IMG/VR virus record: IMGVR_UViG_2939127364_000001 | Strand: one strand, 5' to 3' | Length of the DNA: 64,000 bases | Origin: a virus | Taxonomy: Duplodnaviria > Heunggongvirae > Uroviricota > Caudoviricetes | Shown: positions 5,326-62,375 of the stretch, one piece after another | How positions within the stretch are numbered: position 1 is the stretch's first letter | How the letters are laid out: every line of letters begins with the position of its first letter | Translations under genes and position numbers: made by a program | Notes under the pieces: generated by a model | Told to the model about the DNA's origin: nothing | The model's database searches: none | What the model saw: the letters and a program-made list of their open reading frames with translations, nothing else

Positions 5326-5360
5326 TGGAGAGTTCCCTTTGCGTATATAATTATCGTCTG

Positions 5361-5376
5361 AAACAACTTGTTTTCT
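5361..5376. promoter_or_regulatory. Motif A upstream of parA
   Basis: aaacaacttgttttct. Confidence 0.4.
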
Positions 5377-5604: not shown

Positions 5605-5913
5605 TTGATGGCCTTCCTACATCACGGCCATCAGGAGGAATACATGTCAGCACTAAAAAAGCAGCGCATCGATTTGAGATTAACCGATGACGATAAAAGC
5701 ATCATCGAGGAAGCTGCCGCAATGTCTAACCAGAGCATTACTCAGTTTATGGTTAGCAGTGCATCTGAACGTGCCGTGAAAGTTATAGAGCAACACCGTA
5801 GACTAGTTCTGAATGAAGAATCCTGGAATCTGGTTATGGACGCTATAAGCAATCCTCCGGCACCGAACGACAAGCTGAAACGAGCTGCTGATCGTCTGAA
5901 AAGCATGGAGTAG
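5605..5913 (+). CDS. DUF1778-type RHH antitoxin (AtaR/TacA-like)
   Basis: About 90-102 aa, ...KKQRIDLRLTDDDKSIIEEAA..., directly upstream of and 8 nt from a GNAT toxin-like gene; true start may be the internal ATG near 5644. Confidence 0.6.
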   Translation: MMAFLHHGHQEEYMSALKKQRIDLRLTDDDKSIIEEAAAMSNQSITQFMVSSASERAVKVIEQHRRLVLNEESWNLVMDAISNPPAPNDKLKRAADRLKSME

Positions 5914-5920
5914 TTTACTC

Positions 5921-6442
5921 GTGAGCAATACAACGATAGAGATTTTCTCTGGAGAGAAAGATTATGATCTAAACGGTTTTGATTGCGGCGAAGAGTCACT
6001 AAACGCCTTTTTAGCCAACCACTTAAAAAGGCAGCATGAGGGAAAAATTCTTCGTGCTTATGTGCTTTGCACTCAAGAAGAAAGGCCAAAAGTGTTAGGA
6101 TATTACACTTTGTCAGGTAGTTGTTTTGAAAAGGAGTCCTTACCTTCAAGAAGCAAACAAAAGAAGGTTCCTTATCGGAATGTTCCAAGTGTTACTTTGG
6201 GTAGGCTGGCTTTGGACAAGTCCCTTCAAGGTCAAGGATTTGGCTCAATGCTTGTAACACATGCAATGCGCGTTGTGTACAATGCATCTCTTGCTGTAGG
6301 CATTCATGGACTTTTCGTTGAGGCGTTAAATGACAAAGCCAAGGCGTTTTATAAAAGTTTAGACTTTATCCAGCTGGTTGGTAACAACGAGCGTTCTTTG
6401 TTCTATCCTACAAAATCTATCGAAAAATTGTTCGAAGAATAA
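5921..6442 (+). CDS. GNAT-family acetyltransferase toxin (AtaT/TacT-like)
   Basis: 173 aa, GTG start; GNAT core LGRLALDKSLQGQGFGSMLV; classic antitoxin-then-toxin arrangement. Confidence 0.65.
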   Translation: MSNTTIEIFSGEKDYDLNGFDCGEESLNAFLANHLKRQHEGKILRAYVLCTQEERPKVLGYYTLSGSCFEKESLPSRSKQKKVPYRNVPSVTLGRLALDKSLQGQGFGSMLVTHAMRVVYNASLAVGIHGLFVEALNDKAKAFYKSLDFIQLVGNNERSLFYPTKSIEKLFEE

Positions 6443-35836: not shown

Positions 35837-35876
35837 AGATCCCTCTAAAACACACAGAGCGCGTCCATGCGCTCTA

Positions 35877-35917
35877 AAACAACTTGTTTACTGCATCTGC
35901 TAACCAACTTGTTTTCT
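35877..35917. promoter_or_regulatory. Two copies of motif A upstream of terS
   Basis: aaaacaacttgttta and aaccaacttgttttct; adjacent hairpin agagcgc-gtccat-gcgctct. Confidence 0.4.
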
Positions 35918-45977: not shown

Positions 45978-45996
45978 GATTAATTCCTTATCGTAA

Positions 45997-46013
45997 ATAA
46001 CAAATTGTTTTCT
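45997..46013. promoter_or_regulatory. Motif A upstream of 45495..45977
   Basis: ataacaaattgttttct. Confidence 0.4.
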
Positions 46014-47491: not shown

Positions 47492-47508
47492 AGAAAACAA
47501 ATTGTTAT
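47492..47508. promoter_or_regulatory. Motif A upstream of 47061..47477
   Basis: agaaaacaaattgttat. Confidence 0.4.
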
Positions 47509-47552
47509 CGGGCATAAGAAAATGGCGCGGTTTACGCGCCATTCAAAGAGGA

Positions 47553-48386: not shown

Positions 48387-48396
48387 TACAACTCCG

Positions 48397-48413
48397 TAAA
48401 CGACTTGTTTTCT
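48397..48413. promoter_or_regulatory. Motif A upstream of 48075..48386
   Basis: taaacgacttgttttct. Confidence 0.4.
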
Positions 48414-48880: not shown

Positions 48881-48897
48881 TAAACAACATGTTTTCT
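48881..48897. promoter_or_regulatory. Motif A upstream of 48540..48869
   Basis: taaacaacatgttttct. Confidence 0.4.
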
Positions 48898-49230
48898 TGA
48901 TGGTGTTATTATCGCAATAACGCACAGGCGAAAAAGGATTTTATTCCGGTGAATGTGGTTTTGGCAGTGAGTTTTCAGGTTCAGTACCGAGTACACTTTT
49001 TACATTATTCTGATTTAGTGGCCGAAGGTGGCTGGTGGGCAGAATAATCCTCTCCCCGAAAACCTACTGAAATCGATTGTGACCCGTTGGCTGTCTGGCA
49101 CAATTACGCTGTAACTGGGCATTCAGAGGGAATCCAGCGGTAAGTAAGTTCGCCTGCACGTGAGCGCCTCTCTTCTTCCCGCACATTACAGGTGGGTAGC
49201 CGCAACTCTCCCTATCGCTATACCGGTACG

Positions 49231-49372
49231 CCGCCGTTCCTGAACCGGCATCGAGCCTTTTCCCGAAATCCACACAGGCAACTCGACCGTTTCCCTGAAA
49301 ATCCCCAGCCGTTCCCCGAAGGCAACCCAGCCGTTTCTGTAGCGGGATGCAGCCTTTTCCCTGTATGGACCG
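49231..49372. repeat. Iteron-like cluster 2: six direct repeats at ~22-bp spacing
   Basis: Units starting near 49233, 49254, 49286, 49308, 49329 and 49351 (gccgttcc, agccttttcc, accgtttcc, agccgttcc, agccgtttc, agccttttcc); intervals 21, 32, 22, 21, 22. Confidence 0.55.
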
Positions 49373-49479
49373 AAGGCTAACCGTAGGGGTGTTACGGGGG
49401 ATAAAATCAGGAGTTGAATAAATACGAAAAAGGAGGCGACACCCCTCCTTCCCTCCCCACTTATACATACCTGTCTTGT

Positions 49480-50330
49480 TCGCTATACATGTTGTGTTTT
49501 CTTCGTGTTTTATCTGTCTCAACCTCTCTATAGGCGTTAATGCTCACTCCTTCCAGAATGTTCTATACGGCGACTATTTCTGTTGGTGAATTGGGTGTGT
49601 CGTTCTCTCTGTCGGTGTAAATGGTTTCGTTCGTTTTGCGGTGGTTCTTCTGTGGGGTGTTCTCGTCGTTTTGGTGATTGTTCTTCTCCGTCTATGGAGT
49701 AATGGCAGGTGGGCGATTCCTTTCGTTATTGTGTTTGAGTTGTTTGTCTGGAGTGTGTGAAAGGCTTTTGTAGTTATTCGTGTATTGGGTAATGGCGTTT
49801 CCCGTGATTGTTATGTTTCGTGTCTTTTGGGATTGAGAGAAACCTTGCGGTTACAGGCTTCGTTGGGGTTTCAGTGATTCTGGTGTTTCTTCGCTGTTTG
49901 GGTAATGGCGTGTCGTGGGTATCGCGCGTATGAATGTTTTCGGATTGCCTGTGAAAGTTAGGTTGGTTGTCCGGTAGCCTGGGAAGAAGAGGTGGGTCTT
50001 TTCGGTAGCCTGCCATAAAGAGGTTGGTTGTTTTGGGGAATGACATGTGTGTTATTTAGTTGTTTTGTTATGCCTGAAAATAAGTTGTTTATATGGTTGT
50101 GTAACGCAACGGGAACGATTTTGAGCGTGTGTTTTTGTTGGTAGTGTGTTGGATCGTCTGTGGTGAAAATTGGACGCTGTGGCGCTGTCTGCTGCGTAGA
50201 ATTACGGGTATAAGCAGTGATGTGTGAAAACGTCAATTTTTTAGACCAAATCGGGTGAAAGCGTTGATGTTTCGTTGATCTGTTATTCAGTTGTTTTCTT
50301 ATTGGTATAAACAACTATAACCTATTGATA
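49480..50330. other. GT-rich strand-asymmetric, apparently non-coding tract (~0.85 kb)
   Basis: + strand G+T about 80% by eye; no credible ORF on either strand; internal direct repeats (cggtagcctg... at 49972 and 50002; gtaatggc three times). Confidence 0.5.
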
Positions 50331-50433
50331 TTTAAGGATGTGATTGCAGGTATAGAATGGGGGTAGTGGCGATCAACGGATTCTTATAGAAAAGAATCAA
50401 ATTGTGACCGCCATTATCAATGAGTTGCAACCG

Positions 50434-51003
50434 TTAGTTGTTCAGATAAACATTTGGAACACGGACGTAGAAGTTCCTGTCGCCGGTAAGTTCCAGAGTA
50501 ATGTTAATGTCATTACCATTGTCTAGTGTAGCCGTTGCTCTATAGAACTTATCCGTCACCTTGTCCTCTATTGTCACCTTCATACATTTTGGTGCAGTCG
50601 AACCGTTATTCTCTTTCAGAATGGTCGTTACGAGAGGACAAGCCGCTTCTTCAAGAGCAACCTCTTTCTGGTGTGGGATACCGATGAAGATGTTACCAGC
50701 AAGCAACGCGACGATTACGATAAAAGGAAGTCGACTGCCTTTTGTAACGGTGGCACGTTTCCAGAGATAGACCGGAAGGAGAAATACTCCCCACAGGATG
50801 GCCGGTGGTTCATACCCTGCATCAGACAATGCCATTCTGTCAGCCACCAGAAAGCCGAGTCCAGCGACTCCACCTATCACTATTGCATAATTCAAATACT
50901 CATCTGGCGGCGCTCCAAAGAAGAGAGGCAGTAAAGCTAGAAGCCACGCATAAGCATTATTCAGAGGTTTTGTTTGTTGGTTCTGGGTTTCCATCACATC
51001 CAT
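50434..51003 (-). CDS. Integral membrane protein (hypothetical)
   Basis: 189 aa; 3-4 hydrophobic segments in the N-terminal half and a soluble C-terminal domain. Confidence 0.5.
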   Translation of the reverse strand: MDVMETQNQQTKPLNNAYAWLLALLPLFFGAPPDEYLNYAIVIGGVAGLGFLVADRMALSDAGYEPPAILWGVFLLPVYLWKRATVTKGSRLPFIVIVALLAGNIFIGIPHQKEVALEEAACPLVTTILKENNGSTAPKCMKVTIEDKVTDKFYRATATLDNGNDINITLELTGDRNFYVRVPNVYLNN

Positions 51004-51155
51004 TCCATCACATAAAAATCGCGTTTATATATTATCAATTTTCTCACTTGTATAACCTAAATACGCATCCGTTTATCAATCCACCTTCCACAAACATCAG
51101 CTTTAGCTATGAAAAATAACAATCTCAAAGTGAAAACCATTATCATAGGAAACGA

Positions 51156-51341
51156 TTAGATGAGATGGTCTAATTCATCATCTATCATTGCTTTAACACT
51201 TGAATCATTAACCCCGTATTGATTTATGAACCGTTTCAGCTCCGGTGAAAACTGAAGGTAGATATCGTGAGCGTTTTTCACTGTAGGTTCAACGCCACGC
51301 ATTTCAAGCGCCTTTAGTAGATATGAGTCTTCTTTAAGCAT
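51156..51341 (-). CDS. Small hypothetical protein
   Basis: 61-aa ORF in the same operon. Confidence 0.35.
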   Translation of the reverse strand: MLKEDSYLLKALEMRGVEPTVKNAHDIYLQFSPELKRFINQYGVNDSSVKAMIDDELDHLI

Positions 51342-51377
51342 AAATTCTCCGTTGTCTAGTATGAAGCGATTGCCGGA

Positions 51378-51677
51378 TTACCATTGCCAGCACTCTAGCC
51401 CTTCAACGACCGGTGCACCACAATCAAAATGTACAGAGTCAAAGCCTACATCAAGTACTTTCTGAATGTTAGCAATCGCGCCTTCGGATATACCATATCG
51501 ACGCAAGTCCTCTTTCCAGACATCATCCTGTAACCCGGCGTGGACAATACAACCGCCATCAATTTGTGAAACCCAATCCAGCTCATTGCTTGCGATCATG
51601 AATCGGCGAGCATCTTCCTCTGATGTATGAGATGAACTGATCAATGCCACCTGGTAGGCTTGGGTAATGTTCAACAT
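51378..51677 (-). CDS. Hypothetical protein (first gene of right-end operon)
   Basis: 99 aa; two copies of motif A upstream. Confidence 0.5.
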   Translation of the reverse strand: MLNITQAYQVALISSSHTSEEDARRFMIASNELDWVSQIDGGCIVHAGLQDDVWKEDLRRYGISEGAIANIQKVLDVGFDSVHFDCGAPVVEGLECWQW

Positions 51678-51690
51678 TTCAACAACTCCG

Positions 51691-51756
51691 AAACAATTTG
51701 TTTTCTTATGTGGCTTATTATCTCAATCAACAAAAGGTAGAAAACAAATTGTTTTA
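51691..51756. promoter_or_regulatory. Two copies of motif A at the right prophage end
   Basis: aaacaatttgttttct (51691..51706) and agaaaacaaattgtttta (51739..51756). Confidence 0.4.
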
Positions 51757-51794
51757 GGGTTTGTTAAAGTCAGAAGGGGTTGTGTCTATATGAA

Positions 51795-51822
51795 AATGCC
51801 CAGCGTGTTGCCGGGCATTGCG
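51795..51822 (-). terminator. metG rho-independent terminator
   Basis: aatgcccggc-aacac-gctgggcatt followed by TTTCAT in - sense, directly after the metG stop. Confidence 0.6.
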
Positions 51823-51838
51823 AACAGAGGTTGTTTAA

Positions 51839-53872
51839 TTACTTAACCTGGTGGCCTGGTTTAGCACCAGCATCCGGGCTTAACAGGAAGATATCTTTCC
51901 CGCCGGGGCCAGCAGCCATCACCATGCCTTCGGAGATACCGAAGCGCATTTTACGCGGAGCCAGGTTAGCCACCATAATGGTGTGACGACCAATCAGTGC
52001 CTGTGGGTCTGGATAAGCAGAACGGATGCCTGAGAAGACATTACGCTTTTCACCACCGAGATCCAGTGTCAGACGCAGCAGTTTGTCAGAACCTTCGACA
52101 AACTCCGCGTTTTCAATCAGCGCCACACGCAGGTCAACTTTGGCGAAGTCGTCAAAGGTGATGGTTTCCTGAATCGGGTCGTCAGCCAGTGGGCCAGTTA
52201 CCGGTGCAGCTGTGGCTTTCACTTCTTCTTTGGATGCTTCCACCAGTGCTTCCACCTGTTTCATATCGATACGGTTATACAATGCCTTGAACGGATTCAC
52301 TTTATGGCCCAGCAGCGGTTGCTGGATACCATCCCAGGTCAGTTCTGTATTCAGGAATGCTTCTGCACGTTCAGTCAGTTTCGGCAGTACCGGTTTCAAG
52401 TACGTCATCAGCACGCGGAACAGGTTAATGCCCATAGAGCAAATCGCCTGCAGATCGGCATCGCGTCCTTCCTGCTTCGCCACCACCCACGGAGCCTGTT
52501 CATCGACATATCGGTTAGCCAGGTCAGCCAATGCCATGATTTCACGGATAGCTTTACCAAATTCGCGGCTTTCCCATGCTTCGCCAATCACTTCAGCGGC
52601 ATCAGTAAAGGTTTTGTACAGTTGCGGGTCAGCCAGTTCGCTTGCCAGCACGCCGTCAAAACGCTTGTTGATAAAGCCTGCATTACGGGAGGCCAGGTTA
52701 ACCACTTTGTTCACGATATCGGCATTCACGCGCTGAACGAAATCCTCCAGGTTGAGATCGATATCATCAATGCGCGAAGAGAGTTTCGCAGTGTAGTAGT
52801 AACGCAGGCTGTCGGCGTCAAAATGATTCAGCCAGGTGCTGGCTTTAATAAAGGTGCCGCGAGACTTGGACATCTTCGCGCCGTTCACCGTCACATAGCC
52901 GTGAACAAACAGGTTGGTCGGCTTGCGGAAGTTGCTGCCTTCCAGCATGGCAGGCCAGAACAGGCTGTGGAAGTAAACAATATCTTTACCGATGAAGTGG
53001 TACAGCTCGGCTGTGGAGTCTTTCTTCCAGTATTCATCGAAGCTGGTGGTATCGCCGCGCTTGTCGCACAGATTCTTGAAGGAACCCATGTAGCCAATCG
53101 GCGCGTCCAGCCAGACGTAGAAATATTTGCCCGGCGCGTTCGGAATTTCAAAACCGAAGTAAGGCGCATCGCGGGAGATATCCCACTGTTGCAGGCCGGA
53201 TTCAAACCACTCCTGCATTTTGTTCGCCACCTGCTCCTGCAACGCACCGCTGCGGGTCCATGCCTGCAACATTTCGCTGAAAGAGGGCAGATCAAAGAAG
53301 AAGTGTTCGGAATCACGCATTACCGGGGTAGCGCCAGAAACCACCGATTTCGGCTCGATCAATTCAGTCGGGCTATATGTTGCGCCGCAGACTTCACAGT
53401 TATCGCCGTATTGATCTGGCGCTTTACATTTCGGGCAGGTGCCTTTCACAAAACGATCCGGCAGGAACATGCCTTTTTCCGGGTCGTACAACTGAGAGAT
53501 AGTGCGGTTTTTAATAAAACCGTTCTCTTTCAGGCGAGTATAGATAAGCTCAGACAGCTGGCGGTTCTCTTCGCTGTGCGTCGAGTGATAGTTGTCATAG
53601 CTGATGTTAAAGCCTGCGAAATCAGTCTGGTGTTCCTGACTCATTTCGCCAATCATCTGCTCCGGTGTGATACCAAGCTGCTGTGCTTTCAGCATGATCG
53701 GCGTACCGTGGGCATCGTCGGCACAGATGAAATTAACCTCGTGGCCGCGCATTCGCTGGTAACGAACCCAGACATCAGCCTGGATGTGCTCCAGCATATG
53801 GCCGAGGTGGATTGAGCCGTTAGCGTACGGCAGCGCGCACGTCACCAGAATTTTCTTCGCGACTTGGGTCAT
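51839..53872 (-). CDS. metG: Methionyl-tRNA synthetase
   Basis: 677 aa from [26 protein letters not shown] (HIGH-type motif), KMSKS present, C-terminal ...KPGHQVK; start set at ATG 53872 rather than the upstream-extended track ORF. Confidence 0.95.
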
Positions 53873-54029
53873 AGTAGGCATTACTTCTTTGTAGTGAAAA
53901 GGGGCTTGATAGTAACAAAATGGCCTTATGTCTGCCATGTGATAACAGCATTTCTCATAAATGATTAAATGTCGTAGCTGGAGTACACTACAAGGCGACA
54001 ATTGCGCAAATTAAAATAAAGGAGACGGG

Positions 54030-55130
54030 ATGAGCGAGTCCAAATCGCCGGATGCCCTGAGAGCAATGGTAGCCGGTACGCTGGCTAATTTTCAGCACCC
54101 AACCCTGAAACACAACCTGACTACGCTTAAAGCGTTACACCATGTTGCGTTGATGGATGACACACTGCATGTCGAACTAATCATGCCTTTCGTGTGGAAT
54201 AAGCCTTTTGAAGACCTGAAAGAGCAATGTAGTGGTGATCTGCTCCGTATCACTGGCGCAAAGGCTATTGACTGGAAGCTGTCGTACAACATTGCCACGC
54301 TTAAGCGCGTCAAAAACCAACCAGGCATTAATGGCGTTAAGAACATTATCGCCGTCAGCTCAGGCAAGGGCGGCGTGGGTAAATCCTCCACGGCGGTAAA
54401 CCTGGCACTGGCGTTGGCTGCTGAAGGTGCGAAAGTTGGTATTTTGGATGCCGATATCTATGGTCCATCAATTCCAACCATGCTGGGCGCGGAAAACCAA
54501 CGTCCAACCTCACCTGACGGTACTCACATGGCACCTATCATGTCTCATGGCCTGGCAACCAACTCTATTGGTTATCTGGTCACCGACGACAATGCAATGG
54601 TGTGGCGTGGACCGATGGCCAGCAAGGCGCTGATGCAGATGTTGCAGGAAACTCTATGGCCTGATCTGGACTATCTCGTTCTCGATATGCCGCCGGGCAC
54701 TGGTGATATTCAGTTGACGCTGGCGCAGAACATTCCTGTAACTGGTGCGGTTGTGGTAACTACGCCGCAAGACATCGCGCTGATCGATGCGAAGAAAGGC
54801 ATTGTGATGTTCGAAAAAGTCGAAGTGCCGGTACTGGGTATCGTCGAAAACATGAGTGTGCATATTTGCAGTAACTGCGGTCATCACGAGCCAATTTTTG
54901 GCACCGGTGGCGCACAGAAACTGGCCGAGAAATACAACACGCAGTTGTTAGGCCAAATGCCACTTCATATCTCTCTTCGTGAAGATCTGGATAACGGAAC
55001 ACCAACCGTTATTAGTCGTCCAGATAGCGAATTTACGGCTATTTATCGTGACCTCGCAGATCGCGTTGCCGCCCAAATGTATTGGCAAGGTGAAGTAATA
55101 CCTGGCGAAATCGCATTCCGCGCAGTGTGA
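54030..55130 (+). CDS. apbC: Fe-S cluster carrier ATPase ApbC/Mrp
   Basis: 366 aa; P-loop SGKGGVGKSS; CxxC motif ICSNCGHH; divergent from metG as in E. coli. Confidence 0.9.
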   Translation: MSESKSPDALRAMVAGTLANFQHPTLKHNLTTLKALHHVALMDDTLHVELIMPFVWNKPFEDLKEQCSGDLLRITGAKAIDWKLSYNIATLKRVKNQPGINGVKNIIAVSSGKGGVGKSSTAVNLALALAAEGAKVGILDADIYGPSIPTMLGAENQRPTSPDGTHMAPIMSHGLATNSIGYLVTDDNAMVWRGPMASKALMQMLQETLWPDLDYLVLDMPPGTGDIQLTLAQNIPVTGAVVVTTPQDIALIDAKKGIVMFEKVEVPVLGIVENMSVHICSNCGHHEPIFGTGGAQKLAEKYNTQLLGQMPLHISLREDLDNGTPTVISRPDSEFTAIYRDLADRVAAQMYWQGEVIPGEIAFRAV

Positions 55131-55166: not shown

Positions 55167-55556
55167 CTACATCACGGGACAATCATCAAACTCGCCACTT
55201 CTTGCGTCGTTGATAATGTGAGTGATCACACCAAACACGGCATTGCTGCCCGTGCATCCATCGTCATCCTTTGGCAATGCTTCCTTCTTACCGGTTCTTA
55301 AATCCTCCAGATGCTGACGTGGGTACTTCCGGTATCTTTTTACGCGATATTCCCCATCCAGAGCGCATACAAGCAGAGAACCATCAACCGGGGTAAGTGA
55401 GGAATCGACCACCAGCAATGCACCCTGTAATATTCCCTCACGATGATGACTATCAGCTGCCCTCATGAAGTAGGTCGCTGAAGGATGTCTAATTATCTGC
55501 TGATCAAGAGAAATACGGCTCTCAGCATAATCCGCCGCAGGAGAAGGGAAGCCCAT
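55167..55556 (-). CDS. UmuD'-like S24 peptidase domain protein (lacks the N-terminal arm and cleavage site)
   Basis: 129 aa beginning MGFPSPAADY...HPSATYF...LLVVDS...DGEYRVKRY, aligning with UmuD from its Gly25 onward; convergent with apbC. Confidence 0.7.
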   Translation of the reverse strand: MGFPSPAADYAESRISLDQQIIRHPSATYFMRAADSHHREGILQGALLVVDSSLTPVDGSLLVCALDGEYRVKRYRKYPRQHLEDLRTGKKEALPKDDDGCTGSNAVFGVITHIINDARSGEFDDCPVM

Positions 55557-55594: not shown

Positions 55595-55654
55595 TACATT
55601 AAAGATGCTTGAAGTGTGCAATAGCGCGATGCTTTGCGCTCGTCTGGTGGCGCG

Positions 55655-55906
55655 TTATTTTTTGGCTATATCTTCTTTCTGATATACCGGATCGTTTCCT
55701 TTTGGCAGCAGGAGGCTTAACTGCCGGTAGTGCCGTAGCCGTTCCATGAAATAGGTGCGCAGGTTCTCAGGTTGCTCACGGGCTACCTGTTCCGCTATGA
55801 CGGGTATGTTCAATCGCTCTTTGTAGGCAACCCCCCTGGCAGCCAGGTCAACGTTAACTTTATTCCTTTCTTCCTGGCTTTTGGCTGCTATGTTCCAGTT
55901 GCTCAT
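55655..55906 (-). CDS. Small hypothetical protein
   Basis: 83-aa ORF upstream of the UmuD'-like gene, separated from it by ~100 bp containing the LexA box. Confidence 0.4.
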
Positions 55907-56258: not shown

Positions 56259-57821
56259 ATGAAAATGACAAGTATTCAACAACGTGCAGAGCTTCATCGC
56301 CAGATCTGGCAAATTGCTAACGATGTCAGGGGTTCAGTCGATGGATGGGATTTTAAGCAGTACGTTTTGGGCGCGCTTTTTTACCGTTTTATCAGCGAAA
56401 ATTTTTCCAGTTATATTGAAGCCGGTGATGACAGTATCTGTTATGCGAAACTGGATGACAGCGTAATTACTGATGACATTAAAGACGATGCCATCAAAAC
56501 TAAAGGCTACTTCATCTACCCCAGTCAGCTTTTCTGCAACGTAGCTGCGAAAGCAAATACTAATGACAGACTGAATGCAGATTTAAACAGCATCTTCGTT
56601 GCTATCGAAAGTTCTGCTTACGGTTATCCTTCAGAAGCTGACATCAAAGGTTTGTTTGCTGATTTCGATACCACCAGTAACCGCCTGGGTAACACCGTTA
56701 AAGATAAAAATGCCCGCTTGGCTGCGGTTCTGAAAGGGGTTGAAGGGCTAAAACTTGGTGACTTCCATGAACATCAGATTGACCTGTTCGGTGACGCCTA
56801 TGAGTTCCTGATTTCTAACTATGCGGCGAATGCCGGTAAGTCCGGCGGCGAGTTCTTTACACCGCAGCACGTCTCTAAGCTGATTGCACAACTGGCTATG
56901 CACGGGCAGACCCACGTTAACAAAATCTACGACCCGGCAGCAGGCTCCGGTTCGCTGTTGTTGCAGGCGAAAAAACAGTTTGATGACCATATCATCGAAG
57001 AAGGTTTTTTTGGTCAGGAAATCAACCATACGACCTATAACCTGGCGCGTATGAACATGTTTTTGCACAACATCAACTACGACAAGTTTGATATCAAGCT
57101 GGGTAATACACTGACTGAGCCGCACTTCAGAGATGAAAAACCGTTTGATGCCATCGTTTCTAACCCGCCGTATTCGGTGAAATGGATTGGCAGCGATGAC
57201 CCGACGCTGATTAACGATGAACGTTTTGCCCCGGCTGGCGTTCTGGCCCCCAAATCCAAAGCTGACTTTGCGTTTGTATTACATGCGCTGAACTATCTTT
57301 CGGCCAAAGGTCGCGCTGCGATTGTCTGCTTCCCAGGCATTTTTTACCGTGGCGGCGCGGAGCAGAAAATCCGTCAGTATCTGGTCGACAATAACTATGT
57401 CGAAACCGTGATTTCACTGGCACCGAATCTGTTCTTTGGCACCACTATTGCCGTCAATATTCTGGTGCTGTCTAAACATAAAACGGATACCAAAGTTCAG
57501 TTTATTGATGCCAGCGAACTGTTCAAAAAAGAGACTAACAACAACATTCTGACCGATGCTCATATCGAACAGATTATGCAGGTATTTGCCAGCAAGAAAG
57601 ATGTTGCTCATCTGGCGAAATCTGTTGCGTTTGAGACTGTTGTCGCGAATGACTATAACCTGTCGGTGAGCAGCTATGTGGAAGCGAAAGATACTCGCGA
57701 AATTATCGATATCGCTGAGCTGAATGCTGAGCTGAAAACCACGGTCAGCAAAATCGACCAGTTGCGTAAAGATATTGATGCGATTGTTGCTGAGATTGAA
57801 GGTAGCGAGGTACAGGCATGA
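56259..57821 (+). CDS. hsdM: Type I restriction-modification system methyltransferase subunit
   Basis: 520 aa; N6-adenine MTase motif [12 protein letters not shown]; SAM-binding region; N-terminus [17 protein letters not shown]. Confidence 0.9.
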
Positions 57822-59137
57822 GCGAGCTGAGTTATCTGGAAAAACTGCTGGATGGGGCTGAGGTTGAGTGGGTAGCATTAAATAAATTAGCAACTTTTTT
57901 AAAAGGGAAGTCTTTACCTAAAGAAAAAATAACTCCAGATGGCAATAGATATTGTATTCATTACGGTGAGCTTTTCACTCATTATGGTCCCATAATTGAC
58001 AAAGTATGCTCAAAAACAAACCAAGCAATCAATGAGTCAATTCTATCTGAAAAAAATGATGTTCTAATGCCAACGTCAGACGTTACACCAAGAGGTTTGG
58101 CTACAGCTAGTTGCATTCAAGAAAGTGGCGTTATTTTAGGCGGCGATATTTTGATTATTAGATGCTCTGGTGTTGATGGTAGATATCTAAGTAATTTCAT
58201 AATAAATAACAAAAAAAAGATATTGCAAATGGTTAAAGGTTCTACTGTTTATCATTTGTATGCTAAAGATATAGGTAAATTACTTATCCCCATCCCTTGC
58301 CCCAACAACCCGGAAAAGTCGCTGGCTATCCAGTCTGAAATCGTCAGGATTCTGGATAAATTTACTGCACTTACCGCTGAGCTTACCGCTGAGCTTAGCA
58401 TGCGTAAAAAACAATACAACTACTATCGCGACCAGTTGTTGAGTTTTGATGATGAGCAGGAAAAACCTATTTATCTGGAAAAATTGCTGGATGGGGTTGA
58501 GGTTGAGTGGTTGCCATTGGGGAAACTAGGTGAATTAGTTCGTGGAAATGGATTGCCTAAGTCTGATTTTACCGAATCTGGGGTTCCTGCCATACACTAT
58601 GGTCAGATATATACTTTTTACGGATTATCTACTGAAACAACAAAGTCATTTGTTTCCCATGAAACGGCGAAGAAGCTTAAAAAGGTTAACTCTGGTGATG
58701 TTGTTATTACTAACACAAGCGAAAATTTTACTGATGTTGGTAAGGCGCTTGTTTATCTAGGTAAAGAGCAAGCTGTTACTGGTGGCCATGCAACTATTTT
58801 TAAGCCAAATAGCACTATTATTGGGAAATACTTTGCCTATTTCACGCAAACGGATTCTTTTGCAAATGGGAAAAGGAAATACTCCAAGGGAACTAAAGTA
58901 ATTGATGTGTCTGCATCGGATATGGCGAAAATTATTATCCCTATCCCCTGTCCGGAAAATCCGGAAAAATCCCTTGCCATTCAGTCTGAAATCGTTCGGA
59001 TTCTGGATAAATTCGACACCCTGACTAACTCCATCACCGAAGGTCTCCCGCGTGAAATCGAGTTGCGCCAGAAACAATACGAATACTACCGTGATTTACT
59101 GTTCAGTTTCCCAAAACCTGAAACTGTCAGTAATTAA
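57818..59137 (+). CDS. hsdS: Type I restriction-modification specificity subunit (type IC-like architecture)
   Basis: 439 aa; two AT-rich target-recognition regions separated by GC-richer conserved repeats ([23 protein letters not shown]... and [23 protein letters not shown]...); central TAELTAEL. Confidence 0.9.
58370..58396 (+). repeat. Tandem 12-bp repeat (cttaccgctgag x2) in hsdS central conserved region
   Basis: Encodes TAEL-TAEL; copy number of this repeat distinguishes EcoR124I from EcoR124II specificity. Confidence 0.7.
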
Positions 59138-59258
59138 TTGACCATTGCTACCGACCGGGCCACCTTAACACCCGGTCAGTATATAGACTATTTTTTTACG
59201 CGCCGGAAGCCCCCTTAACTCCCTTCCGGCCCTTGCCAGACGGCACAAAGGATGCGCT

Positions 59259-62200
59259 ATGACTCATCAAACACATACCATTGCTGAATCCAATAACTTT
59301 ATCGTTCTTGATAAGTACATCAAAGCTGAGCCAACAGGCGACAGCTACCAGAGCGAATCGGACCTGGAACGTGAACTGATTCAAGACCTGCGGAATCAGG
59401 GCTATGAATTTATTTCGGTAAAATCACAGTCAGCGATGCTGACCAACGTTCGGGAACAGCTTCAGAGCCTCAATGGTGTGGTGTTTAATGACAGCGAGTG
59501 GCGGCGTTTCACGGAGCAGTATCTGGACAACCCGAGCGATGGCATTCTGGATAAGACCCGTAAAATCCATATCGACTATATTTGCGACTTTATTTTTGAT
59601 GACGAGCGACTTGAGAACATCTATTTGATAGATAAAAAGAATCTCATGCGCAATAAGGTGCAGATTATCCAGCAGTTTGAACAGACGGGTTCTCATGCTA
59701 ACCGTTATGACGTCACGATCCTGGTTAATGGCTTACCACTGGTACAAATCGAACTGAAAAAGCGCGGCGTGGCGATTCGTGAGGCTTTCAACCAGATACA
59801 TCGTTACAGTAAAGAGAGTTTTAACAGCGAAAACTCCCTGTTTAAGTATCTGCAACTGTTTGTCATTTCTAACGGCACCGATACCCGTTATTTTGCCAAC
59901 ACAACAAAGCGCGATAAAAACAGTTTTGACTTCACCATGAACTGGGCGAAATCAGACAACACGCTGATTAAAGACCTCAAAGATTTTACCGCTACCTTTT
60001 TCCAGAAACATACTCTGCTTAATGTTCTGGTGAACTACAGCGTTTTTGACAGCAGTCAGACGCTACTGGTGATGCGACCGTACCAGATTGCTGCCACCGA
60101 GCGCATTCTGTGGAAAATTAAGAGCTCCTTTACAGCGAAGAACTGGTCAAAACCGGAAAGCGGAGGGTATATCTGGCACACTACCGGTTCTGGTAAAACC
60201 CTCACCAGCTTTAAAGCCGCGCGTCTGGCAACAGAGCTGGACTTTATTGATAAAGTCTTCTTCGTGGTCGACAGGAAAGACCTCGATTACCAGACCATGA
60301 AGGAATATCAGCGTTTTTCGCCAGACAGCGTCAACGGCTCGGAAAATACCGCAGGCCTTAAACGAAATCTGGATAAGGACGATAACAAAATTATCGTCAC
60401 CACTATTCAGAAACTTAATAACCTGATGAAAGCAGAAAGCGACCTGCCTGTATACAATCAGCAAGTGGTGTTTATATTTGATGAATGTCACCGCAGCCAG
60501 TTTGGAGAAGCGCAGAAAAACCTGAAGAAGAAATTCAAACGCTATTATCAGTTTGGTTTTACCGGCACACCTATTTTCCCGGAAAACGCCTTAGGCTCAG
60601 AAACGACCGCCAGCGTATTTGGTCGTGAATTGCATTCGTATGTAATTACCGATGCGATTCGTGATGAAAAAGTGCTCAAATTCAAGGTGGACTACAACGA
60701 TGTGCGGCCACAGTTTAAATCTTTAGAGACAGAAACCGACGAGAAAAAACTGAGTGCGGCTGAAAATCAGCAGGCATTTCTTCATCCCATGCGTATACAG
60801 GAAATTACGCAATATATTCTGAATAACTTCCGCCAGAAGACCCACCGTACTTTCCCAGGTTCCAAAGGCTTTAATGCCATGCTGGCAGTGAGTAGCGTGG
60901 ATGCCGCGAAAGCCTATTACGCGACGTTTAAACGGTTACAAGAGGAAGCAGCTAATAAATCGGCTACCTATAAACCGCTGCGTGTTGCAACAATCTTCTC
61001 CTTTGCCGCCAATGAAGAACAAAATGCCATTGGTGAAATTTCCGATGAAACTTTTGATACCAGCGCAATGGACAGCAGTGCTAAAGAGTTTCTTGACGCT
61101 GCAATTCGTGAGTATAACAGCTATTTTAAAACTAACTTCAGCACCGACAGTAACGGTTTTCAGAACTACTATCGTGATTTAGCCCAACGGGTTAAAAATC
61201 AGGATATCGATCTGTTAATTGTCGTTGGGATGTTTTTAACCGGCTTCGACGCTCCAACATTGAACACGCTATTCGTCGATAAAAACTTGCGTTTTCACGG
61301 CCTGATGCAGGCATTCTCCCGTACCAACCGCATTTATGACGCTACTAAAACCTTCGGTAACATCGTCACTTTTCGGGATCTGGAACGCTCAACCATTGAT
61401 GCCATAACGCTGTTTGGTGATAAAAATACTAAAAATGTGGTGTTAGAAAAGAGTTATGCTGAGTATATGGAAGGCTTTACAGATGCTGCCACTGGTGAAG
61501 CTAAACGCGGCTTTATGGCAGTAGTTTCAGAACTGGAACAACGGTTCCCTGACCCTGCCAGTATTGAAAGTGAAAAAGAGAAGAAAGACTTCGTAAAACT
61601 GTTTGGTGAATACCTGCGTGCCGAGAACATCCTGCAAAACTATGATGAATTTGCCACGCTGAAAGCCCTGCAACAAATCGATCTTAGCGATCCTGTTGCG
61701 GTAGAAAAATTCAAAGCAGAACATTATGTGGATGATGAAAAGTTCGCTGAATTGCAAACAATTCGTCTCCCTGCTGAACGCAAGATTCAGGATTATCGTT
61801 CTGCCTATAACGATATTCGCGACTGGCAGCGCCGTGAGAAAGAAGCTGAGAAAAAAGAGAAATCAACCACTGACTGGGATGACGTAGTTTTTGAGGTCGA
61901 TTTGCTGAAGTCTCAGGAAATAAACCTGGATTATATCCTTGGACTGATTTTCGAACACAACAGACAAAATAAAGGCAAGGGCGAAATGATCGAAGAGGTC
62001 AAACGCTTAATTCGTTCAAGCCTGGGGAACCGGGCGAAAGAGGGCCTGGTGGTCGATTTTATTCAGCAAACGAACCTGGATGATTTACCAGACAAAGCCA
62101 GTATCATTGAGGCATTCTTTACGTTTGCTCAACGCGAACAGCAACGTGAAGCAGAAGCATTGATAAAAGAAGAAAATCTCAATGAAGAGGCGGCGAAACG

Positions 62201-62375
62201 CTATATTCGCACGTCTTTAAAACGCGAATACGCCACCGAAAATGGCACAGAATTAAACGAGACATTACCAAAACTTAGTCCGTTAAACCCGCAATATAAA
62301 ACGAAAAAACAGACCGTTTTCCAGAAAATCGTCACGTTTATTGAAAAGTTCAAAGGAGTAGGTGGGCAGATATAG
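59259..62375 (+). CDS. hsdR: Type I restriction enzyme endonuclease/translocase subunit
   Basis: 1038 aa; helicase motifs TGSGKT and DECHRSQ; own transcription unit 120 bp after hsdS; M-S-R gene order as in type IC systems. Confidence 0.9.

Follow-up and report, generated by a model that had tools for sequence, protein, structure and literature searches.

A variable locus beside metG-apbC in an SSU5/pHCM2-type phage-plasmid sequence: a DUF5983 gene pair and a membrane-protein cassette

Do three small genes that lie beside metG and apbC in a tailed-phage sequence form one operon at the end of an integrated prophage, or do they belong to another kind of locus? The genes are found on the minus strand of IMG/VR record IMGVR_UViG_2939127364_000001 (64,000 nucleotides analysed, hereafter the window), as open reading frames of 99 amino acids (aa; 51378-51677), 61 aa (51156-51341) and 189 aa (50434-51003). 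They are an ordinary set of hypothetical accessory genes. We give about even odds to the reading that they occupy an accessory slot of an SSU5/pHCM2-type phage-plasmid, with a repressed early gene pair and an independently expressed membrane-protein moron.

Genomic context of the locus

The whole window is collinear with SSU5/pHCM2-type phage-plasmids of about 110 kb. Apart from a few short variable segments, it aligned from end to end with plasmid NZ_CP062914.1, at 92-98% for the most part. The annotation of this plasmid combines phage structural genes with plasmid partition and replication genes (terminase, portal, capsid, tail, ParB, DnaB and related genes). A preliminary description of the locus had placed the genes at the right end of a prophage, adjacent to a chromosome junction. 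This placement does not hold, since the element continues beyond metG-apbC (collinearity with NZ_CP062914.1 includes the S24 peptidase and type I restriction-modification genes found there) and since all 275 matches to 50300-51850 among 5,426 complete E. coli genomes were on plasmids, with no chromosomal match. The replicons of these relatives point to an extrachromosomal state, an indication drawn from the relatives rather than from the window's own source.

The premise that the genes border host DNA fails likewise. The divergent metG (minus strand) and apbC (plus strand), at 51839..55130, are a host-derived segment carried by the phage-plasmid, as seen from sequence identity and annotation: the segment matched plasmid NZ_CP031294.1 at 100% identity but chromosomal copies at only about 90%, occurred at 221 plasmid places, and is annotated also on plasmids and in phage Cyrano. 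These seemingly host genes are cargo of the phage-plasmid itself, not chromosome. Genes adjoining metG are then internal accessory cargo, and reading them so guards against mis-calling such elements as integrated prophages. Phage-plasmids of the SSU5 type are common among clinical isolates of E. coli, Shigella and Salmonella, and the metG they carry has been linked to antimicrobial survival. A metG borne by a phage-plasmid is known from Shigella (PMC12452169; bioRxiv 2025.09.12.675607). Downstream of metG, a hairpin resembling an intrinsic terminator and followed by UUUUC lies on the minus strand at 51795..51819 (ten pairs in the fold of 51678-51845).

Three genes in a mosaic slot

All three frames are true coding genes under purifying selection. 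Compared with divergent homologues, they showed pN of 0.06-0.37 and pS of 0.43-0.99, with no internal stops, which bears out the genes and coordinates first reported. Pfam, NCBIfam, PADLOC and PHROG profile searches of the three proteins returned only DUF5983 and function-unknown PHROGs. No catalogued anti-phage defence protein was matched in PADLOC at E <= 1 by any of them, profile searches gave no homology to a known exclusion or conversion factor, and PDB sequence searches yielded no match below E = 0.1; structure searches were uninformative on the role of DUF5983. That none of the three resembles a characterised anti-defence or exclusion protein counts against the accessory-slot reading.

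The slot is flanked by the captured metG-apbC segment on one side and by a conserved non-coding stretch of about 1.5 kb on the other, in which no tandem repeats were found. The closest described counterpart is CYRAN_100-103 of Cyrano (pLF82, OV696614), an SSU5-like phage-plasmid (PMC9928086). It shares flanks about 98% identical, the metG-apbC cargo, a promoter with two palindromes, the 99-aa DUF5983 gene, the downstream hairpin and the non-coding stretch, but carries a 244-aa coiled-coil gene (phrog_20845) in place of 50423-51377, where the window has the 61-aa and 189-aa genes. CMS-2020a lacks exactly 50421-51153, that is, the 189-aa gene and its spacer, and homology with both relatives restarts at about 50420-50422. 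Other contents of the slot were a 396-aa gene, a shortened 73-aa frame that stands in for the 99-aa gene and is followed by no other, DUF1380 with a 132-aa gene, and DUF1380 followed by the 99-aa and 61-aa genes. No known function or defence-profile match was found among the alternative genes. The DUF5983 gene was the steadiest gene of the slot across relatives. Like a moron, the 189-aa cassette is present in some otherwise identical genomes and absent in others: CMS-2020a lacks it, and Cyrano and other plasmids have other genes in its position. The related group comprises the SSU5/pHCM2/pWPMR2 phage-plasmids.

The three genes had been taken for one operon. Co-transcription is favoured for the 99-aa and 61-aa genes, which are separated by 36 nt and adjoin in three genera, the 61-aa gene coming next after DUF5983 in E. 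coli, Salmonella and Enterobacter. It is disfavoured for the 189-aa gene, which is set apart from the 61-aa gene by a spacer of 152 nt with 32% GC, behaves as a cassette and has a Cyrano counterpart with different expression (see below). In the sequence comparisons, the 189-aa gene and its AT-rich upstream region form a cassette of their own, which relatives lack or replace, and the locus appears to be two separately controlled units. A generic promoter and terminator scan gave no prediction between the three genes, terminators included, and its counts did not exceed those in shuffles.

The 99-aa protein (51378..51677, minus strand) is acidic (pI 4.35, net charge -10) and consists of a stand-alone DUF5983 domain (PF19419, phrog_5003). 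Its residues 12-99 aligned to profile positions 3-90 of 90 with 42.6 bits (cut-off 27), and its orthologues in Salmonella and Citrobacter scored 74-80 bits. The Salmonella homologue was 45% identical, and for the 99-aa gene pN was well below pS. Relatives of DUF5983 occurred on 2,295 plasmids, of which 1,662 were conjugative. On pOXA-48-type and IncFII plasmids the homologue was found beside ssb, antirestriction, DUF1380, DUF4942 and oriT-mobA-traI; it lay near mobA-traI in both, directly after ssb on a pOXA-48-type plasmid (L016) and three genes after the antirestriction gene on an IncFII plasmid (L020). These leading-region genes of pOXA-48/IncL-M and IncFII(K) plasmids encode homologues of about 100 aa that are 32-37% identical to the window's protein. 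The DUF5983 domain is also shared, above the Pfam threshold, with YeeW-like genes downstream of cbtA in CP4-44-type islands. The present locus differs from the island and leading-region loci in having no cbtA/cbeA, ssb or oriT, in its phage-plasmid setting and in its putatively palindrome-controlled promoter.

Leading regions are rich in anti-defence genes (PMC11541004). Because DUF5983 and DUF1380, which can take its place as first gene, are typical of leading regions, beside ssb and antirestriction genes, the small acidic proteins may by analogy have an establishment or host-takeover role, possibly in anti-defence. No report of a DUF5983 function was found among papers that name the domain, and literature searches gave nothing useful on DUF1380. 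With DUF5983 on more than 2,000 sequenced plasmids, pOXA-48-type ones included, any function assigned to it would have wide reach.

The 61-aa protein (51156..51341, minus strand; phrog_11467) is also acidic (pI 4.88). It was found only in SSU5-type phage-plasmids, on 102 plasmids, and always directly downstream of the DUF5983 gene; copies in Salmonella and Enterobacter, likewise after DUF5983, were 49-56% identical. A match to PF25708 (T7 gp5.9) reached an E of 0.0062 over 17 residues (2-18), and identity with gp5.9 was rejected on this sub-threshold match (16.9 bits, cut-off 24.5) over so short a stretch. A DNA-mimic RecBCD inhibitor of the gp5.9 kind, the pair shielding incoming linear phage DNA, would suit the acidity of both proteins and their presumed early expression. 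With a net charge of just -4 for the 61-aa protein and no PDB sequence match toward such a function, this explanation is extremely improbable.

DUF5983 is steadily found downstream of cbtA in E. coli islands (PMC10790755; bioRxiv 2026.06.09.728211), and this link to the CbtA toxin, together with the fact that DUF5983 adjoins the membrane gene on plasmids of Salmonella and Citrobacter (45% and 65-87% identity), would favour the three proteins as one system. The membrane protein might, for instance, be the effector of a toxin-antitoxin-like or abortive-infection module. The adjacency could reflect a functional link rather than independence. Against such a system, each gene was found without the others (99-aa and 61-aa genes only, 99-aa gene with other genes, or DUF1380 and the 132-aa gene without the 99-aa gene), and DUF5983 was on 2,295 plasmids against 107 for the membrane protein. 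No cbtA lies directly upstream of DUF5983, a place taken by metG in E. coli and by DUF1380 in Salmonella; the lack of any PADLOC match and the unequal expression of the Cyrano neighbours also speak against a single system, which we consider quite unlikely.

A predicted two-palindrome promoter and expression in Cyrano

Two copies of the palindrome GAAAACAAnTTGTTTT (motif A) lie upstream of the 99-aa gene, at 51690-51705 and 51741-51756, as the preliminary description had noted for the region thought to drive the genes. The distal copy (TAAAACAATTTGTTTT, 51741..51756) overlaps the -35 position of a predicted promoter and is kept in Cyrano and in a Salmonella plasmid. The proximal one (GAAAACAAATTGTTTC, 51690..51705), a probable operator, lies 12 nt before the ATG and would cover the transcript from about +5 to +20. 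Between them, the sequence reads as an extended -10 element, TGaGATAAT (51717..51725, minus strand), from which the 99-aa and 61-aa genes are predicted to be transcribed. The stretch TGAGATAAT was identical in a Salmonella locus (L013), and the same two-copy promoter precedes DUF1380-DUF5983 in Salmonella. The sole hit of an Rfam scan of 46-56.5 kb was a plant microRNA on the hairpin of the two palindromes, dismissed as spurious (E 0.1; 24 bits, threshold 180).

Motif A was strongly enriched, with 19 matches in the window against 1.9 expected, a number reached in none of 100 shuffles. Matches also precede the DnaB-helicase gene, the terminase gene, several small-gene units and a parA-like operon, and a second two-copy arrangement was found at 35875/35901. 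TGn with GATAAT or TATTAT occurred 11-12 nt upstream of motif A also at 48412 and 48896, and GATAAT without TG at 46012; the fixed spacing to a -10 element held at just 4 of about 10 sites. From its position at these promoters, motif A may be the operator of a dimeric regulator of the phage-plasmid that holds units off in the plasmid-prophage state. Repressor networks with dispersed operators are represented by the C1 operators of P1 and the KorB sites of RK2. The present arrangement is alike in that one short conserved site recurs at many promoters around the element, those of replication, packaging and accessory units among them, and differs in the sequence of motif A and in its operator role being putative.

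The palindrome could otherwise be an RNA leader or promoter element (a 5' hairpin acting on stability or translation) or an activator site for lytic transcription. The proximal copy does belong to the predicted 5' leader and stands 10-45 nt upstream of start codons, and the parA-like operon behind one copy was expressed in the Cyrano lysogen (50-89 counts). By eye, however, a palindrome alone could give at most a weak stem, A-U-rich and a few pairs long, closed by a very small loop; the copy at 51741-51756 is upstream of the predicted start and would stay untranscribed, and two-copy arrangements are typical of operators. We find these alternatives unlikely. Because the parA-like operon is expressed behind motif A, presence of the motif does not equal silence.

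Expression was taken from the published Cyrano RNA-seq (PMC9928086 S1 Table, normalised counts), in a phage-plasmid whose arrangement differs from that of the window. In the lysogen, CYRAN_101, the DUF5983 orthologue behind the same two-copy promoter, was at or below background (7.45 against a median of 9.8; PMC9928086). CYRAN_102, the gene in the variable position, reached 56.9 counts and is listed there as a moron (PMC9928086). It was about 8-fold above CYRAN_101 and 5.8-fold above the 9.8 background, but it differs from the window's gene and starts just 45 nt after the Cyrano DUF5983 gene. Over 10 samples, CYRAN_101 correlated with terS, CYRAN_105, CYRAN_106 and CYRAN_108 (r 0.81-0.90), against r 0.28 with CYRAN_102. 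For the 99-aa gene, the counts of this orthologue contradict the earlier idea that one operon, with its promoter in the motif-A region, acts in the lysogen.

A single three-gene operon at a prophage-chromosome junction, expressed in the lysogen for conversion or exclusion, would agree with the shared direction of the genes, with the lack of a predicted terminator between them and with a membrane protein as a plausible exclusion factor. It conflicts with the absence of any junction (the element running past metG-apbC, 275 of 275 matches on plasmids), the silence of the DUF5983 orthologue under the same promoter and the behaviour of the 189-aa gene with its spacer as an independent indel, and is very unlikely.

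In the accessory-slot reading, the first unit would consist of the DUF5983 and 61-aa genes, read from the extended -10 promoter flanked by the two palindromes. A palindrome-binding regulator would keep it off in the plasmid-prophage state, and its products would be made on entry or induction. A more far-reaching version, which we regard as doubtful, takes DUF5983 and the 61-aa protein for early establishment effectors, such as inhibitors of host defence or repair, common to phage-plasmids, leading regions and CP4-44-type islands. Here they would be off in the carrier state through a dispersed network of palindromic operators governing the SSU5-type lytic programme; the swappable position would hold envelope or exclusion genes expressed in the lysogen, with the 189-aa protein from a widespread family.

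The membrane-protein cassette

The second unit of the accessory-slot reading would be the 189-aa gene (50434..51003, minus strand; phrog_12486) together with an AT-rich upstream region and a 3' hairpin of its own, an exchangeable cassette of the moron type that lacks the palindrome. The spacer (51004..51155, minus strand; 32% GC, no motif A) travels with the gene and is absent with it in CMS-2020a. A candidate extended -10 element, TGaTAATAT, is found in it at 51029-51037, with TGaTATCAT in the Salmonella counterpart, and TTGATAnnATAT is kept upstream of the 66%-identical Salmonella homologue; the generic promoter scan gave nothing on the minus strand of the spacer.

The protein is predicted to have four hydrophobic helices (hydropathy peaks at about 17-30, 39-56, 67-81 and 92-109), with a conserved PVYLWKRAT motif, four K/R in the loop 82-91 and a C-terminal domain of one helix and four beta-strands (AF2 model, pLDDT 84.5) that contains two invariant cysteines (C122/C140). 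Hydropathy and model agree with the N-terminal membrane segments and C-terminal domain described before. In the PGAP annotation the orthologue begins at Met4 and has 186 aa; dN/dS was 0.10-0.17. The protein was found on 107 plasmids. Because most of its relatives are encoded by chromosomal genes of an ordinary kind and have a GYF_2 or zinc-ribbon domain at the N-terminus, the family is not phage-specific. No conserved genomic partner was seen for the distant homologues, and nothing useful was found in the literature on bacterial GYF_2 proteins.

The product would probably sit in the inner membrane, have a small periplasmic domain with a disulfide bond and be made in the carrier cell; an envelope-level role, such as superinfection exclusion, would be the most likely. 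By analogy, an accessory function expressed in the lysogen is plausible, because the cassette is present or absent among relatives, has its own conserved promoter-like element and corresponds in Cyrano to the position of a published moron. Small multi-pass inner-membrane proteins are known to act in superinfection exclusion (P22 SieA, T4 Imm, HK97 gp15). The 189-aa protein is alike in its small size, its predicted multi-pass topology and its origin from accessory cargo of a temperate element, but has no sequence or profile similarity to them and belongs with widespread chromosomal relatives. A mosaic slot with a putatively repressed DUF5983 unit and an autonomous cassette would be a concrete place to seek establishment and exclusion functions.

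As with phage morons, defined in PMC9928086 as prophage accessory cassettes with autonomous expression, the 189-aa gene, its AT-rich upstream region and its 3' hairpin come and go as a unit, and the counterpart CYRAN_102 is transcribed in the lysogen; unlike them, the hairpin has no U-tract and the promoter is a predicted one. This hairpin, stable in the fold (-24.6 kcal/mol, z -4.4), lies just past the 189-aa stop codon (50367..50413, minus strand), at the constant boundary of the variable slot.

Phage-plasmid context of the locus

Three minus-strand genes occupied 50434-51677, encoding proteins of 99 aa (51378-51677), 61 aa (51156-51341) and 189 aa (50434-51003), all present in the window as the preliminary description had reported. 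When compared with homologues sharing 46-87% amino acid identity (Salmonella, Citrobacter, Enterobacter and a further E. coli plasmid), pN (0.06 to 0.37) was far below pS (0.43 to 0.99), and no internal stop was found in any compared copy of the three genes. These substitution patterns indicate that all three are genuine coding genes. The 99-aa protein corresponded to a stand-alone DUF5983 domain (42.6 bits, above the cut-off of 27) and was acidic (pI 4.35, net charge -10).

When 50300-51850 was compared by megablast with 5,426 complete E. coli genomes, 275 matching places were obtained, each on a plasmid of about 100-120 kb. Collinearity with plasmid NZ_CP062914.1 extended along the window, for the most part at 96-98% identity, interrupted by a few short variable segments. 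In the gene order common to both, a DnaB-like helicase is followed by tail, head, terminase and ParB genes and then by the locus, beyond which come metG, apbC, an S24 peptidase, a DNA polymerase III theta homologue and a type I restriction-modification system. The Escherichia phage Cyrano (pLF82), an SSU5-like phage-plasmid (PMC9928086), displayed an arrangement matching that of the window.

The divergent metG-apbC pair (51839-55130) was 100% identical to plasmid NZ_CP031294.1 and shared about 90% identity with the chromosomal locus, which was present in 5,425 of the 5,426 searched genomes; the segment is therefore diverged host-derived cargo of the phage-plasmid. The preliminary description had taken this cargo for host chromosome and placed the three genes beside a chromosome junction, a claim contradicted by the plasmid location of all matches: the observation was real as sequence and misplaced as biology. 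Carriage of metG on a phage-plasmid has a precedent in Shigella sonnei, on pWPMR2 (cited in PMC12452169; bioRxiv 2025.09.12.675607), where a link to antimicrobial survival has been made.

The type I restriction-modification system was complete (hsdM, hsdS and hsdR, 56259-62375), and hsdS was the segment differing from NZ_CP062914.1 (57871-59001 without alignment), consistent with a changed specificity. Three other segments of the otherwise collinear window did not align to this plasmid (10745-11985, 22568-24176 and 41362-43143); they affected the tail-fibre and tape-measure genes and a region of small genes, indicating further mosaic spots.

Variable gene content of the slot

The locus represents a known kind of region in temperate elements, an accessory or moron slot. 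In the related plasmid CMS-2020a, the 189-aa gene and its 152-nt upstream spacer were missing, the gap covering precisely 50421-51153. Cyrano carried a 244-aa coiled-coil gene in place of 50423-51377 (the 61-aa and 189-aa genes), and homology returned at ATTGATAATGGCGGTCAC, about 12 nt past the 189-aa stop codon. Other plasmids displayed the 99-aa gene followed by a 396-aa gene, a 73-aa shortened ORF replacing the 99-aa gene with no gene after it, DUF1380 followed by a 132-aa gene, or DUF1380 followed by the 99-aa and 61-aa genes. The full three-gene form was found in 59 of the 255 matching plasmids (PLSDB). Salmonella and Citrobacter plasmids lacked metG and had the order DUF1380, DUF5983, membrane protein, where the DUF5983 protein has 105 aa and shares 45% identity with the 99-aa protein, and the membrane protein is 65-87% identical to that of the window. 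An unannotated 61-aa homologue (49-56% identical) immediately followed DUF5983 on one Salmonella Newport plasmid and one Enterobacter hormaechei plasmid. DUF5983 is thus the gene that varies least in the slot, with the 61-aa gene as its recurrent partner and the membrane-protein gene as one among several interchangeable downstream genes.

A hairpin located 3' of the stop codon (50367-50413; -24.6 kcal/mol, z -4.4, without U-run) sat exactly on the constant boundary of the slot and was kept behind whichever gene filled it. It could serve as a common 3'-end or stabiliser element, or mark a boundary of recombination. The conserved stretch of about 1.5 kb at 48900-50420 held no credible gene; its three ORFs had no PHROG match, and no PGAP annotation, Rfam match or tandem repeat was found there. 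It was strongly strand-asymmetric (AT skew -0.29, C and A being abundant on the minus strand), harbored five of the window's 13 AGTTGTTT half-sites (within 49738-50316) and included a core (50188-50310) with 83% identity even to Enterobacter plasmids. An origin, a regulator-binding array or a Rho-dependent insulator are possible functions.

Palindromic sites, predicted promoters and expression

Two copies of a palindrome (motif A), already noted in the preliminary description, were found directly 5' of the 99-aa start codon (51690-51705 and 51741-51756). With up to three mismatches, GAAAACAAATTGTTTT gave 19 matches on both strands of the window (about 11 sites) for 1.9 expected, a number reached by none of 100 shuffles. 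In the DnaB-helicase, parA-like and terminase units, the palindrome preceded the start codon by 10-45 nt; it looks like a dispersed operator for a putative global regulator of SSU5-type phage-plasmids. Sites of AAAACAAnTTGTTTT (2432-2448, 5359-5375, 35875-35916, 45996-46012, 47493-47509, 48396-48412, 48881-48896, 50076-50091 and 51689-51756) were nearly all intergenic, preceding replication, partition, packaging and small-gene units.

Read on the minus strand, the region upstream of the 99-aa gene comprised successively the metG terminator hairpin, the first palindrome copy (51756-51741), TGaGATAAT (51725-51717), 11 nt, the second copy (51705-51690), GGAG and the ATG. At 46012, 48412 and 48896, the palindrome likewise had a GATAAT or TATTAT hexamer at a distance of 11-12 nt on its 5' side, preceded by TG at the latter two. 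One palindrome copy is predicted to overlap the -35 region and the other to occupy about +5 to +20, a classical repression geometry. On a Salmonella plasmid with another first gene, DUF1380-DUF5983 was preceded by an identical two-copy promoter, so the promoter module is conserved as a unit. The two copies were mutually complementary (51677-51768; 30-nt arms, 80% complementary, with a 32-nt loop containing the -10 element) and would fold in single-stranded form as a long hairpin (z -5.0 for the whole 168-nt region), probably a by-product of two palindromic sites; this hairpin explained a spurious Rfam microRNA match. The palindrome was absent from the spacer ahead of the 189-aa gene (32% GC), which held a candidate TGn extended -10, TTGATAATAT, conserved as TTGATATCAT 5' of a 66%-identical Salmonella homologue.

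In published LF82 transcriptomes (normalised counts in LB; PMC9928086 S1 Table), the Cyrano orthologue of the 99-aa gene, CYRAN_101, which has the same promoter, reached 7.45 counts, and the Cyrano median, taken as background, was 9.8. The gene in the variable position, CYRAN_102, listed as a moron, reached 56.9 counts, and the cargo genes apbC and metG 92 and 16 (about 9-fold and 1.6-fold over background, respectively). Across ten samples, CYRAN_101 correlated with other palindrome-preceded genes (terS, r = 0.90; CYRAN_106 and CYRAN_108, r = 0.88; CYRAN_105, r = 0.81) and did not track CYRAN_102 (r = 0.28), in a comparison covering five conditions only and a downstream gene different from that of the window. 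The parA-like operon, also palindrome-preceded, was expressed in the Cyrano lysogen (50-89 counts).

The 129-aa S24 (LexA/UmuD-like) peptidase gene (55167-55556) adjoined the DNA polymerase III theta homologue (about 55650-55900), and its Cyrano orthologue was among the most highly expressed lysogen genes (148 counts) and was up in macrophages. A DUF1778 antitoxin and GNAT (KacT-type) toxin pair was encoded at 5605-6442, with strong lysogen expression of its Cyrano counterpart (344-592 counts).

Encoded proteins and possible roles

The best-supported reading divides the locus in two parts. The DUF5983 and 61-aa genes would form a repressor-controlled early pair related to plasmid leading-region genes, and the membrane-protein gene would be an autonomous, swappable cassette within a well-sampled phage-plasmid family.

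DUF5983 is known only as a gene 3' of the CbtA toxin in CP4-44-type islands (PMC10790755; bioRxiv 2026.06.09.728211), and the literature on this domain yielded no demonstrated function. Homologues were found by tblastn on 2,295 plasmids, 1,662 of them conjugative. On a pOXA-48-type IncL/M plasmid, the homologue directly followed ssb in an array with DUF4942, Hha, DUF1380 and an antirestriction gene, adjoining mobA-traI; an IncFII plasmid had the same layout without an annotated ssb. In both plasmids these homologues were leading-region genes, and anti-defence genes are enriched in plasmid leading regions (PMC11541004). The 61-aa protein was found only in SSU5-type phage-plasmids; its identification as T7 gp5.9 was rejected, the resemblance being sub-threshold and spanning 17 residues only. 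For the pair, we infer a role in establishment or anti-defence.

The 189-aa protein displayed four hydrophobic peaks, and its AlphaFold2 model (mean pLDDT 84.5) had helices to residue 133 followed by four beta-strands, in agreement with the N-terminal transmembrane segments and C-terminal domain described previously. No Pfam family matched it, and a profile search (E <= 0.001) retrieved 1,427 cluster representatives. An N-terminal GYF_2 domain was present in 35 of 66 sampled relatives, and zinc ribbons in a few. Placeable relatives lay in unrelated chromosomal contexts, with distant copies in Erwinia and Dickeya jumbo phages and in Enterococcus phages. Conserved features were PVYLWKRAT at the end of helix 3, invariant C122 and C140, and ATLDNGNDI in the beta-domain. 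Because loop 82-91 contains four K/R and the cysteine pair is conserved, the loop is presumably cytoplasmic and the C-terminal domain periplasmic. Since the N-terminal domains of relatives look cytoplasmic, the first hydrophobic segment, short and proline-broken, may span the membrane incompletely; the topology as a whole is a prediction. An envelope function or exclusion would be plausible roles for this protein.
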